Of a stretch of DNA of 53,302 nt, positions 20,020 to 22,492 are shown piece by piece. Under the pieces are notes generated by a model, which was not told the origin of the DNA, did no database searches, and was given only the letters and a program-made list of their open reading frames with translations. Every line of letters starts with the position of its first letter. Position 1 is the stretch's first letter. The position numbers and the translations under genes are program-made. Origin of the DNA: an uncultured Dictyoglomota bacterium (GTDB lineage: Bacteria; Dictyoglomota; Dictyoglomia; Dictyoglomales; Dictyoglomaceae); the NCBI GenBank assembly GCA_964654465.1, contig CAZZIO010000007.1, forward strand, positions 1-53,302, read 5' to 3'.

Positions 20020-20268
20020 TTAGAACAGTGATTGAAGATCTCTTAATAATTCACTTATCTCGTTTTCTAAATCTTTATCTCCTTCAGCAAGACATTTTTT
20101 TGCATAATTTTCTACTAACAATACTCCTACTCTCTTTAAGGCAGATCTCACCGCAGCGATTTGAGAAATAATCTCTTTACAGTCCCTATCTTCCTCTATC
20201 ATTCTTTGAAGTCCTCTAACCTGCCCTTCTATTCTTCTTAAAGCCACAAGATAATCTTTCTTATCCAA
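20020..20268 (-). CDS. CsoR/RcnR/CstR-family transcriptional repressor
   Basis: LRRIEGQVRGLQRMIEEDRDC..I..QIAAVRSAL signature; C30 and C59. Confidence 0.92.
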   Translation of the reverse strand: MDKKDYLVALRRIEGQVRGLQRMIEEDRDCKEIISQIAAVRSALKRVGVLLVENYAKKCLAEGDKDLENEISELLRDLQSLF

Positions 20269-20271
20269 TGT

Positions 20272-21660
20272 TTAATTCTCCTCCAATAAATGTTTAATAA
20301 TACTCCTTGCTGCTATTTTTCCTGCACCCATAGCGTTTATTACCGTAGCTGCACCGCTTGCAATATCTCCTCCTGCATAAACCCTTTCTTTAGATGTTTT
20401 TCCTGTTGTTTCATCGATTATTATAGTTCCATGTTTGCTTATAGCTAAACCTGGAGTAGTCATACTTATTAGTGGATTTGGTACGGTTCCTATAGCTACT
20501 ATTATCATATCTAAAGGGAAAAAGAAGTTTGAATCGGGAACAGGAATTGGTCTTCTCCTCCCACTACTATCTGGTTCTCCCAATATCATTCTTTGAAGTT
20601 CTACACCTATTACTCCACCATGTTCATCACCAATAAACTTAACAGGAGCAACTAAGAAATTAAATCTAATTCCTTCTTCCTTTGCATGGATGATCTCTTC
20701 ATATCTTGCAGGCATCTCTTCCTCAGTACGTCTATATAAGACATGAACTTCTTCTGCACCTAATCTTAGAGCTGTTCTTGCAGCATCCATAGCTACATTT
20801 CCTCCTCCTATTACACCCACTCTTTTTCCTATTTTTATCGGTGTGTCATATTCAGGAAATCTGTATGCTTTCATAAGATTGACCCTCGTTAAAAATTCAT
20901 TAGCAGAATATATACCCACAAGATTTTCCCCAGGTATATTCAAAAACTGAGGAGCACCAGCTCCCGTACCTATGAATACTGCATTGTATTCCTTCAAAAG
21001 CTCATCTATGGTTATAGTCCTTCCAACAACTATATTTGTGTAAATATTAACCCCTAAATTTTTAACATATTCTATTTCTGCTCTAACTATTCTTTTAGGA
21101 AGTCTAAACTCAGGTATTCCATAAATTAAGACTCCTCCAGGTTCATGGAAAGCTTCAAAGATACTTACATTAATTCCCTTCTTCGCTAAATCTCCTGCTA
21201 CTGTAAGCCCTGCAGGGCCAGAACCAATTACCGCTACTTTTTTATCATACCTTTTCTCTATTTTGGGAATTTCTATACCTTCTTTTAATTCGAGATCTGC
21301 AACAAATCTTTCTAATCTACCAATTGCTACTGGTTCTCCAACTTTTTTTAAAGTACATAGTGCTTCACATTGGTTCTCCTGAGGACATACTCTTCCTGTT
21401 GTAGCTGGAAGATTATTAGTCTCCTTAATTTTTTTAATAGCCTCATCATATCTTCTTTCTCTTATAAGTCTAATAAAACTGGGAATATCAATATTTACAG
21501 GACATCCTTTTATACAAGGAGCACCCTTACATTGCAAACATCTACTTGCCTCAATTAAAGCTTGCTCCTCAGTATAGCCTAATGCCACCTCATCAAAATT
21601 CTTAATCCTTTCTTTTACTGGTTGTTCAGGCATCGAAGTTTTAGTCTTTAGAACTTTCAA
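20272..21660 (-). CDS. nfnB: NfnB/SudA large subunit (GltD-like, often annotated as homotetrameric glutamate synthase)
   Basis: [14 protein letters not shown] and VCPQENQCE Fe-S motifs; [26 protein letters not shown]; start set at TTG 21660 behind GAGG. Confidence 0.88.
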
Positions 21661-22492
21661 TTCTATTCGCCTCGCTTTCTTCAAGAATCTTTAGAGCGAG
21701 CATCTCTTCTTCCTTATAAGTCTTTAACCTTAATAAAAGTTCGTCAAAATCAACCAAATGCCCATCAAACTCTGGACCATCCACACAGGTAAACTTTATC
21801 TCACCACCCACAGTAACTCTACATCCCCCACACATACCAGTACCATCCACCATTATAGGATTAAGACTTACTATAGTTGGCACATTATATGGTCTCGTAA
21901 CCTCAGAAACTACCTTCATCATAATAGTAGGACCTACAGCCCATATTCTATCTATTTTCCTATTTTCTAATAATTCCTTAAGTACATCAGTAACAAGCCC
22001 TTTTCTACCCAAGGTACCATCATCTGTTGTAATATAAGCTTCATCTACTAAATTTTCAATTTCATCTCTATAAATTACATAATCTTTACTTCTTCCACCT
22101 ATAATACTTATTACATAATTTCCATAAGATTTTAGAGATTTTAATATAGGAAAAAGTGCTGCTATTCCTACTCCTCCTCCCACACCAATTACTACTCCGT
22201 ATTTATCTATTTCACTTGGTTTGCCCAGGGGGCCAACCACATCAAGTATATATTCACTCCTTTCTAATTTTCCAAGAAGTTTTGTAGTTTTCCCTACTTC
22301 TTGAAAAACTATTGTAATACTTCCTTCTTTTTCATCTTTATCTGCTATAGTTAAAGGAATTCTTTCACCTTTCTCATAAACTCTTATTACAACGAATTGC
22401 CCTGCTAATGCCTTCTGAGAAATTAAAGAAGCTTTAACTTTAATTAACTTAACTCCTGGAGCTAATATTTTCTTGTCCAATATTTCAAACAA
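21641..22492 (-). CDS. nfnA: NfnA/SudB small subunit (PyrK-like, FAD and 2Fe-2S)
   Basis: [34 protein letters not shown]...CVDGPEF (Asp-ligated 2Fe-2S characteristic of NfnA). Confidence 0.9.

Follow-up and report, generated by a model that had tools for sequence, protein, structure and literature searches.

Organization of the locus

The DNA analysed here (the window) is a stretch of 53,302 nucleotides (nt) from contig CAZZIO010000007.1 of an uncultured Dictyoglomota bacterium of the family Dictyoglomaceae (assembly GCA_964654465.1). Its minus strand carries nfnA and nfnB, the genes for the two subunits of NfnAB, followed by a gene for a small repressor of the CsoR/RcnR family, and this three-gene arrangement, called nfnAB-csoR below, is the subject of the present analysis. 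Along that strand the order is a gene for a 231-residue protein, a promoter-like site, nfnA, nfnB, an 82-residue open reading frame (ORF) and tRNA-Arg(ACG). The source names of the closest homologues of the small repressor identify the organism as a Dictyoglomus. The genome holding the window is designated G000, ten other Dictyoglomaceae genomes are designated G001 to G010, and the genera within the family are designated g1, g2 and g3.

The small-subunit gene nfnA is an ORF of 283 residues at positions 21641–22492. The longest ORF for the large-subunit gene nfnB spans 20272–21684 (470 residues). In the junction alignment, a TTG at 21660 and a GAGG located 8–9 nt 5' of it are kept in all 11 family genomes, while an ATG at 21633 is not conserved across them, so the TTG is most likely the true start and the gene would occupy 20272–21660. 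With this start nfnA and nfnB overlap by 20 nt, compared with 44 nt if the longest ORF is taken. The nfnB stop codon (TAA, 20274–20272) is followed by the three nucleotides aca and then by the TTG start codon of the regulator gene at 20268, ahead of which lies the ribosome-binding site GGAGGAG; the regulator gene itself, an ORF of 82 residues, occupies 20020–20268. The overlap, the 3-nt spacing and the tight gene string that they form had been claimed in the first-pass annotation of the window, and all of them held. The 3-nt gap, the ribosome-binding site and the TTG are common to all five g1 genomes. In the two g3 genomes the regulator gene starts with ATG and lies within ~40 nt of nfnB.

Judged from the sequence, nfnA, nfnB and the 82-residue gene would form one transcription unit. 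Its downstream boundary is marked by the tRNA-Arg(ACG) gene at 19877–19953 on the same strand, which has a strong near-consensus promoter of its own (TTGACT-18-TATAAT) at 19968–19997. On the upstream side, a consensus scan placed a promoter-like site at 22522–22550 of the minus strand (TTTACT, 17 nt, TATACT, with TG ahead of the −10 box), and a similar nfnA promoter was found in genera g1 and g2. The gene of the 231-residue protein (22565–23260, minus strand) comes next, an ORF for which profile searches returned no family match; in g3 it lies directly against nfnA, and the two are probably transcribed together.

NfnA scored 408.6 bits against NF004862 (cut-off 220) and matched the PDB chains 5JCA_S (E 2.5e-106) and 4YLF_A (E 1.7e-88), and NfnB scored 614 bits against TIGR01316 (cut-off 471.75) and matched 4YLF_B (E 1.6e-179) and 5JCA_L (E 1.2e-170). 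The Pfam domains of the pair are DHODB_Fe-S_bind, Fer4_20 and Pyr_redox_2, and its two-subunit make-up is that of a PyrK-like FAD/[2Fe-2S] protein together with a GltD-like protein with two [4Fe-4S] clusters and FAD. Judging by these matches the enzyme pair is a bona fide NfnAB, with electron bifurcation predicted by homology. NfnAB sets the NADPH/NADH/ferredoxin balance in many anaerobes and is able to reduce polysulfide directly in vitro. The genome contains a single copy of nfnB, and it also encodes a thioredoxin reductase (392 bits, cut-off 343).

A probable Cys-based regulator of the CsoR/RcnR family

The 82-residue protein matched PF02583 over residues 2–76 (E 8.7e-27; 93.8 bits, cut-off 22.8) as well as ten PDB members of the family, with E-values from 9e-15 to 2.8e-5. 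In an alignment of 38 sequences, L10, R11, R12, E14, G15, Q16 and G19 were invariant, and the N-terminal helix motif L-R-R-I-E-G-Q, which has a role in DNA binding in the CsoR/RcnR superfamily, is present; members of this superfamily assemble as a dimer of dimers. The translation shows C30, Y55 and C59, and hence the pattern x-C30-Y55-C59. In HMMER alignments, Y55 stands opposite the His of '..RHANHC..' in the Geobacillus Cu-CsoR 4M1P and opposite Asn55 in 7MQ1, the pneumococcal CstR, a residue replaced by Ala in the mutant structure 7MQ3. C30 and C59 align with the Cys residues of 7MQ1. The first-pass annotation had pointed to both Cys, to the Tyr at the position of the Cu-CsoR His ligand and to a CstR-like Cys spacing without that His, and the alignments bear this out. 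Residue 29 is Asp, so the first Cys stands in the context DRDC as in CstR, whereas Cu-CsoRs have Tyr before this Cys. The helix-3 Glu is kept as E73.

Compared with Cu-CsoRs, the protein thus departs from the x-C-H-C pattern, lacks the second-shell Tyr and is not adjacent to copA or copZ. With CstR it has in common the two Cys without a His at the Y position; the wedge Asn55 is missing, and the neighbours are nfnAB and a tRNA gene instead of sulfur genes. A non-copper, Cys-based regulator is well supported by these comparisons, and the protein is best placed as a CsoR-fold member of a non-copper x-C-Y-C subgroup.

This subgroup was surveyed in the best 120 of 2004 homologues at E ≤ 1e-5. Among these, 43 were x-C-Y-C (10 of them from Dictyoglomaceae), 69 x-C-H-C, five C-R-C and one C-F-C, and two were truncated. 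By these counts the C-Y-C fingerprint noted in the first-pass annotation is common and not peculiar to this repressor. Tyr at position 29 occurred in 34 of the 69 C-H-C proteins and in 0 of the 43 C-Y-C proteins, and Glu at position 73 in 50 of 69 and 19 of 43, respectively. The metagenome loci L195–L274 showed Lys at the His/wedge position in 26 of 80 cases (C-K-C), Phe in six and Arg in five, none of them beside copA, and in the non-copper branches variation appears to concentrate at this position. The x-C-Y-C proteins would thus be a widespread, uncharacterised CsoR subgroup that is not peculiar to the Dictyoglomaceae. The group may already have been delimited in the network tables of PMC8643695, the available text of which describes clusters 6–9 of its similarity network as uncharacterised.

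Pfam annotation of 115 ORFs around 15 C-Y-C loci gave a picture of the genes that accompany the subgroup. A thioredoxin gene lies directly upstream of the regulator gene on the same strand in three Chloroflexi loci (L047, L051 and L052), and an OsmC gene directly downstream in two Anaerolineae loci (L057 and L076). In Deinococcus (L061) the regulator is found beside a metallo-beta-lactamase-rhodanese protein, and in L048 genes for DsrE2, a NarI-like protein, TusA and a CCG/Fe-S protein precede it. Six Clostridia loci (L050, L053, L054, L073, L093 and L094) share the string ThiF-RseC/MucC-regulator or ThiF/DUF520-regulator, with a divergent ThrE-type exporter gene and a serine hydroxymethyltransferase gene near; the Clostridia proteins with Tyr at this position often have Cys-Cys or Phe-Cys at residues 29–30, and no C/G-tract operator was seen at these loci. 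At eight additional C-Y-C loci from metagenomes, 27 of the 37 surrounding ORFs were annotated in a second round, with the regulators and small overlapping ORFs excluded. These neighbourhoods were mixed and included a molybdopterin oxidoreductase with FdhD and a cysteine desulfurase, an Fe-S/cytochrome b-HMA pair, and housekeeping genes.

A tree was calculated by a quick IQ-TREE search from 198 rows (118 homologues, the two truncated ones having been dropped, and 80 locus proteins) and 90 columns. The 11 Dictyoglomaceae rows form one clade (SH-aLRT 99), located inside a 30-row group (support only 71) of 29 C-Y-C proteins and one C-H-C protein, to which the proteins linked to thioredoxin, OsmC and rhodanese also belong. 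This group is in turn nested in one of 57 rows (support 90), in which copA-linked loci number 0 of 12. The phylogenetic placement suggested in the first-pass annotation therefore puts the regulator with C-Y-C proteins and away from the copA-linked loci. The C-Y-C label changes 8–9 times on the tree, at least six of the changes being forced by well-supported branches, and the class is for that reason not demonstrated as a single clade.

A candidate operator at the nfnA promoter

The sequence ATATACCCATTTGGGTTTAC at 22546–22565 of the minus strand, with the core ACCC-N4-GGGT, is a candidate operator. Its first base is the last base of the upstream stop codon, and it overlaps the first T of the nfnA −35 box. 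The ACCC..GGGT shape is shared with the type-1 operator of B. subtilis CsoR. The left half, ATATACCC, is identical to the S. mitis cst operator half-site quoted in the part of PMC8643695 available to us. Across the window, ACCC-N4-GGGT has one match against 0.11 expected, and 11 of 100 shuffles reach one match. When the spacer is allowed to vary (ACCC-N(2-7)-GGGT), only eight sites in the genome fall outside ORFs of at least 90 residues, and the nfnA site is the only one of them that is AT-flanked and promoter-proximal; the other seven look like hairpins or rRNA- or tRNA-type sequence. Three other ACCC-N(0-8)-GGGT candidates in G000 (C40:225425, C33:23730/24080 and C65:113026) were rejected because they lie inside ORFs. 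The palindrome was also considered as a terminator of the upstream gene. This was rejected: the stem has four pairs, the RNA hairpin is not unusually stable (fold z −0.94), and the site was not returned by the terminator scan.

The same type of palindrome is found just upstream of C-Y-C operons in relatives of the regulator, as TACCCC-N3-GGGGTA-type sites that are better than the nfnA site, those ahead of the Chloroflexi thioredoxin-regulator pairs being near-perfect. Such sites are ACACCCCAGGGGGGTAT, 43 nt before the thioredoxin gene of L047 (3964–3980); GTACCCCGTGGGGGTAC, upstream of the thioredoxin gene of L051 (4284–4300), with the identical sequence also in L055; ATACCCCCCGGGGGTAC, upstream of the thioredoxin gene of L052 (1014–1030); and AAACCCCCAGGGGGTAT, 14 nt before the rhodanese-fusion gene of L061. 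Two others lie upstream of the regulator gene itself, ATACCCTAGGGGGGTAG in L227 and ATACCCCGTAGGGTAT in L266, the latter with N4 spacing like the nfnA site. These matches make the nfnA site credible as a candidate operator. Within the family it is kept in G002, whose proteins are 94% identical, with the arms retained and the spacer altered.

Conservation within and outside the Dictyoglomaceae

A search of 41 genomes found the regulator in the window genome and in six of the ten other family genomes, and in all seven it directly follows nfnB. No PF02583 match was obtained in G005, G007, G009 and G010 (all 99% complete), which keep nfnAB at 78–80% identity. In G007, G009 and G010 the same tRNA-Arg gene comes ~45 nt after nfnB. 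The corresponding gap in G005 is ~160 nt long and contains a 19-residue regulator-like stretch that matches weakly (E 0.028). Whether the last gene is nfnB or csoR, a tRNA-Arg gene comes next in each of the 11 family genomes. The position of the regulator is thus old in the family, if not ancestral, but the regulator is dispensable. The nfnAB-linked orthologue of G006 (L026, 3933–4178) has His at 55 (D-C-H-C) and keeps Asp29, a combination suggestive of a reversion or an intermediate inside an otherwise C-Y-C clade.

The genes belong to a larger syntenic block with the order tRNA(Gly,Cys,Ala)-231aa-nfnA-nfnB-[csoR]-tRNA-Arg-DUF4388-FAD-dependent oxidoreductase (FAD-depend_C), the outer parts of which lie at 17637–19855 and 22565–23554 of the window. 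All 11 genomes show the core, nfnA-nfnB-[csoR]-tRNA-Arg-DUF4388; the outer members were seen in those genomes whose retrieved stretches extended that far. In g3 an extra gene, for a predicted secreted protein of ~188 residues, is located between tRNA-Arg and DUF4388.

Outside the family the picture is different. Among 80 loci of regulator homologues on one-genome-per-species contigs, none had nfnA or nfnB within 5 kb. One of 80 metagenome loci did, and its regulator, 82% identical, is Dictyoglomus-like. None of 12 loci from a search for relatives had nfnB within 1.5 kb. In the reverse direction, nfnB is a common gene, present in 80 of 151 diverse genomes, and a PF02583-like ORF within 1.5 kb of it was found at 0 of 21 loci from outside the Dictyoglomaceae and at all four Dictyoglomaceae loci scanned (L140–L143, all from regulator-bearing genomes). 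The nfnAB-csoR module is lineage-specific and confined to the Dictyoglomaceae. Of the linkage that the first-pass annotation wished to see surveyed, the part inside the family stands for every genome with the regulator, while the regulator is lost in four of the 11 genomes and the linkage does not extend to other lineages.

Proposed control of nfnAB-csoR

The reading that we favour, and to which we give an even chance, is that the regulator is a non-copper dithiol-switch repressor that autoregulates nfnAB-csoR. The reduced protein would bind the ATACCC-N4-GGGT site at the nfnA −35 box and so hold down nfnA-nfnB-csoR. It would come off the DNA when Cys30 and Cys59', paired across the dimer interface, become oxidised. 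The bond formed could be a disulfide or, as in CstR, a bridge of the per- or polysulfide type, and Tyr55 would stand where CstR has its 'wedge' Asn. After release NfnAB would rise and would use NADH and reduced ferredoxin to supply NADPH to thioredoxin reductase and similar thiol-repair systems; as an alternative physiological role, NfnAB may reduce polysulfide directly. Co-transcription, DNA binding at the candidate site, the switch chemistry and the nature of the signal are the parts of this scheme that we infer.

Between the two physiological roles we slightly favour NADPH supply for thiol repair, in view of the absence of a rhodanese domain from the genome and of the mixed neighbourhoods of the relatives. 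This role would also fit the presence of a thioredoxin reductase gene and the thioredoxin and OsmC genes that accompany relatives of the regulator. As the relatives are found beside thioredoxin or OsmC as often as beside sulfur enzymes, a general thiol-oxidation signal would fit at least as well as a persulfide. The first-pass annotation had proposed a dithiol sensor of reactive sulfur or of the thiol redox state. The non-copper Cys-pair make-up agrees with the dithiol part of that proposal, and nothing was found that points to sulfur specifically. What it had observed at the locus is confirmed, then, and its interpretation is partly supported.

Several results weigh against autoregulation at the candidate site. 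The site is absent upstream of nfnA in G001, G003, G004, G006 and G008, so that it is present in only two of the seven regulator-bearing genomes, and in these five genomes 6–7.5 kb around the operon contained no C/G-tract palindrome except one intragenic N8 site. In g3 the intergenic space before nfnA is too short for a promoter. With N4, the spacer falls one base short of that in most of the relatives' sites, and the right arm is imperfect. Over the whole genome ACCC-N4-GGGT occurs five times against ~4 expected by our own base-composition estimate, and only the position of the nfnA match is notable. A pattern search of five relatives gave 100 strand matches with no enrichment over a reversed-pattern control; the 30 that were inspected included, besides the G002 nfnA site, three intergenic places, namely a long hairpin, a stretch resembling rRNA and, in G008, a palindrome between two genes, none of them convincing. 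With the regulator lost from four of the 11 genomes that keep nfnAB, any control that it exerts must be dispensable, and the surveys from either side turned up no nfnAB linkage outside the family. The His55 of the G006 orthologue departs from the C-Y-C pattern, and the tree that places the regulator comes from 90 columns and a quick search. A domain profile search of the genome, which is 99.97% complete, found no rhodanese domain; the genome therefore lacks a sulfur regulon of the classic cst type. Control of nfnAB is therefore best regarded as plausible in this species and its closest relative, G002, and not as general.

Many of the same results would be expected if the regulator were a passenger, a possibility that we consider unlikely without being negligible. 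It would then still be a dithiol-type sensor, with a target other than nfnAB; transcription from the nfnAB promoter would merely continue into its gene, which sits in a compact block that is seldom rearranged, and the protein would act on other promoters or be in the course of being lost. The synteny of the whole nfnAB block across the family is consistent with this, and so are the loss of the regulator alone from four of 11 genomes with a possible, weakly matching relic in G005, the lack of a canonical operator at nfnA in five of the seven regulator-bearing genomes, and the absence of the nfnAB linkage from every other lineage surveyed. A passenger would not, however, account for the location of the sole promoter-proximal operator-type site of G000 at the nfnA −35 box, nor for the arms that G002 keeps although its spacer has changed. 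The translational-coupling distance is moreover kept in all five g1 genomes, and the C-Y-C relatives lie as a rule in or next to the operon that bears their operator.

Copper and other ligands

A second alternative is that the protein senses Cu(I) through its two Cys and represses a distant copA. In favour of this, the genome has no other PF02583 gene, the protein retains both Cys and Glu73, the G006 orthologue has His55, and an ATPase is encoded with CPC, YN-x4-P and M-x-x-SS, the motifs of a P1B-1-type CopA. The gene of this P1B-type ATPase is not on the nfnAB contig and runs off the end of contig C24 (L034, 508–1746, minus strand). For this reason the genome had seemed free of HMA domains, and the absence of such a domain, once used as an argument against copper, was withdrawn. 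Known Cu(I)-CsoRs (M. tuberculosis, B. subtilis and Geobacillus 4M1P) share with the regulator the PF02583 fold (4M1P, E 9e-15), both Cys and the helix-3 Glu. The regulator differs from them in having Tyr for the His ligand and Asp for the second-shell Tyr, and in lacking a copA or copZ neighbour. According to the available part of PMC8643695, the loss of the Y-position His and of the Tyr/Glu second shell explains why CstR binds Cu(I) without being switched by it, and the same cause would apply here.

The genomic distribution of copA argues in the same direction. Within 5 kb of the regulator gene in 80 species-genome loci, copA was found at 40 of 63 C-H-C loci, 0 of 15 C-Y-C loci (one of which was misaligned as Q-Y-C) and 0 of two C-R-C loci. 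In the metagenome loci the figures were 14 of 32 for C-H-C, 0 of nine for C-Y-C, one of one for C-Q-C and 0 of 38 for the C-K-C, C-F-C, C-R-C and C-G-C types taken together, where absences weigh less because many of the contigs are short. Both samples combined give 0 of 24 for C-Y-C versus 54 of 95 for C-H-C.

Within the Dictyoglomaceae, the presence of copA is independent of the regulator. The copA genes of the relatives (L035, L036, L038 and L042) are intact in G002, G003, G005 and G009, in fragments in G001, and limited to the first HMA domain before a stop in G006; G002 and G003 encode a full CopA of 796 residues with two HMA domains. Thus G005 and G009 have CopA orthologues (65–68% identity) but no PF02583 gene, while G001 and G006 keep the regulator. 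The copA promoter (TTGATT..) carries a TACT-N5-(A/G)GTA palindrome ahead of its −10 box and no C/G-tract site, and it is the same with or without the regulator. The copA-upstream TACT-N5-AGTA was considered as a regulator-specific operator and rejected, as it occurs equally in the regulator-less G005 and G009. Taken together, a copper sensor is very unlikely.

Sensing of Ni or Co (RcnR/InrS type) or of an aldehyde (FrmR type) is the least probable reading, barely worth entertaining, as the weak NCBIfam similarity to FrmR (44.7 bits) and RcnR (34.3 bits) lies far under the respective cut-offs of 133 and 138 and the protein, with the N-terminus M-D-K-K, lacks both the Pro2 of FrmR and the His residues (positions W, Y and Z) of the H-C-H-H or H-C-H-C fingerprint of these sensors.

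Relation to known regulators and implications

Among the characterised members of the family, CstR of S. aureus, E. faecalis, S. pneumoniae and S. mitis (7MQ1/7MQ2; PMC8643695, as far as its text was available) comes closest. CstR is released from DNA by a di-, tri- or tetrasulfide cross-link that persulfides bring about. The regulator and CstR share the fold (7MQ1, E 1.1e-14), the C30/C59 numbering of the S. pneumoniae protein, the DRDC motif, the lack of a His at the Y position and the operator half-site of the S. mitis cst system. They differ in the residue at position 55, which is Tyr here and the 'wedge' Asn (x-C-N-C) in CstR, and in the shorter operator spacer and imperfect right arm described above. 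The neighbours also differ, being NfnAB here, in a genome without a rhodanese domain, and rhodaneses, persulfide dioxygenase and CoA-persulfide reductase in CstR. In the part of the 2024 review PMC11672702 available to us, CstR is defined as x-C-N-C with the 'wedge' Asn, corresponding to clusters 4 and 10 of a sequence similarity network (SSN), and set apart from other x-C-x-C proteins without the Asn; the same text states that no H2O2-specific sensor of the CsoR family has been characterised. The actinomycete x-C-x-C proteins, such as the S. coelicolor 'CsoR/CstR' and M. tuberculosis Rv1766 (SSN cluster 3 in the available text of PMC8643695), share with the regulator the two Cys and the lack of both the His and the wedge Asn. 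They are presented as candidate reactive-sulfur sensors in the accessible part of PMC11672702, and the neighbourhoods reported for them are those of sulfide/sulfite detoxification and not NfnAB.

Control of nfn by Rex, which the first-pass annotation had cited as the known bacterial system, is backed by the Nfn review PMC6405883; the corresponding statement on SurR was not found in the part of the review available to us. In the C. kluyveri unit rex-crt-bcd-etf-hbd-nfn, as described in the available part of that review, a redox-responsive repressor is likewise encoded in one transcription unit with nfn. Rex, however, senses NADH/NAD+ by a Rossmann domain and its gene is at the head of the unit, whereas here a Cys-based CsoR-fold gene is at the tail. 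G000 does encode a Rex-type redox repressor at a different locus (contig C56, 12171–12302; L031). Near nfnA, no Rex-box-like site was found at up to three mismatches from the consensus used. The available text of PMC6405883 names Rex as the sole regulator and mentions neither CsoR nor Dictyoglomus. Our search of the literature available to us found no description of the nfnAB-csoR module, of NfnAB or a CsoR in Dictyoglomus, of a CsoR linked to thioredoxin in Chloroflexus or of the x-C-Y-C class, in agreement with the impression in the first-pass annotation that the module is undescribed. A CsoR-fold dithiol sensor is in itself a known kind of regulator; what would be new is the Tyr at the His/wedge position and the joining of such a sensor to a new type of target.

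A wider interpretation can be put forward only tentatively, and we regard it as rather doubtful. The x-C-Y-C proteins may represent a branch of CsoR that senses thiol oxidants (peroxide or disulfide stress) and controls thioredoxin, OsmC-type peroxidases or sulfur-relay enzymes in different phyla. In Dictyoglomus such a sensor would have recruited NfnAB, so that NADPH supply would be switched by the thiol oxidation state and not by NADH/NAD+ via Rex.

If the proposed control of nfnAB is correct, the Cys-based repressor would provide a second, chemically different input, that of thiol or sulfur stress, to an electron-bifurcating enzyme, besides the NADH sensor Rex. With its non-copper neighbourhoods and ready-made operators, the x-C-Y-C subgroup would also offer direct test cases for how the CsoR fold discriminates between persulfide, peroxide and Cu(I), and for the contribution made by the His/wedge residue.

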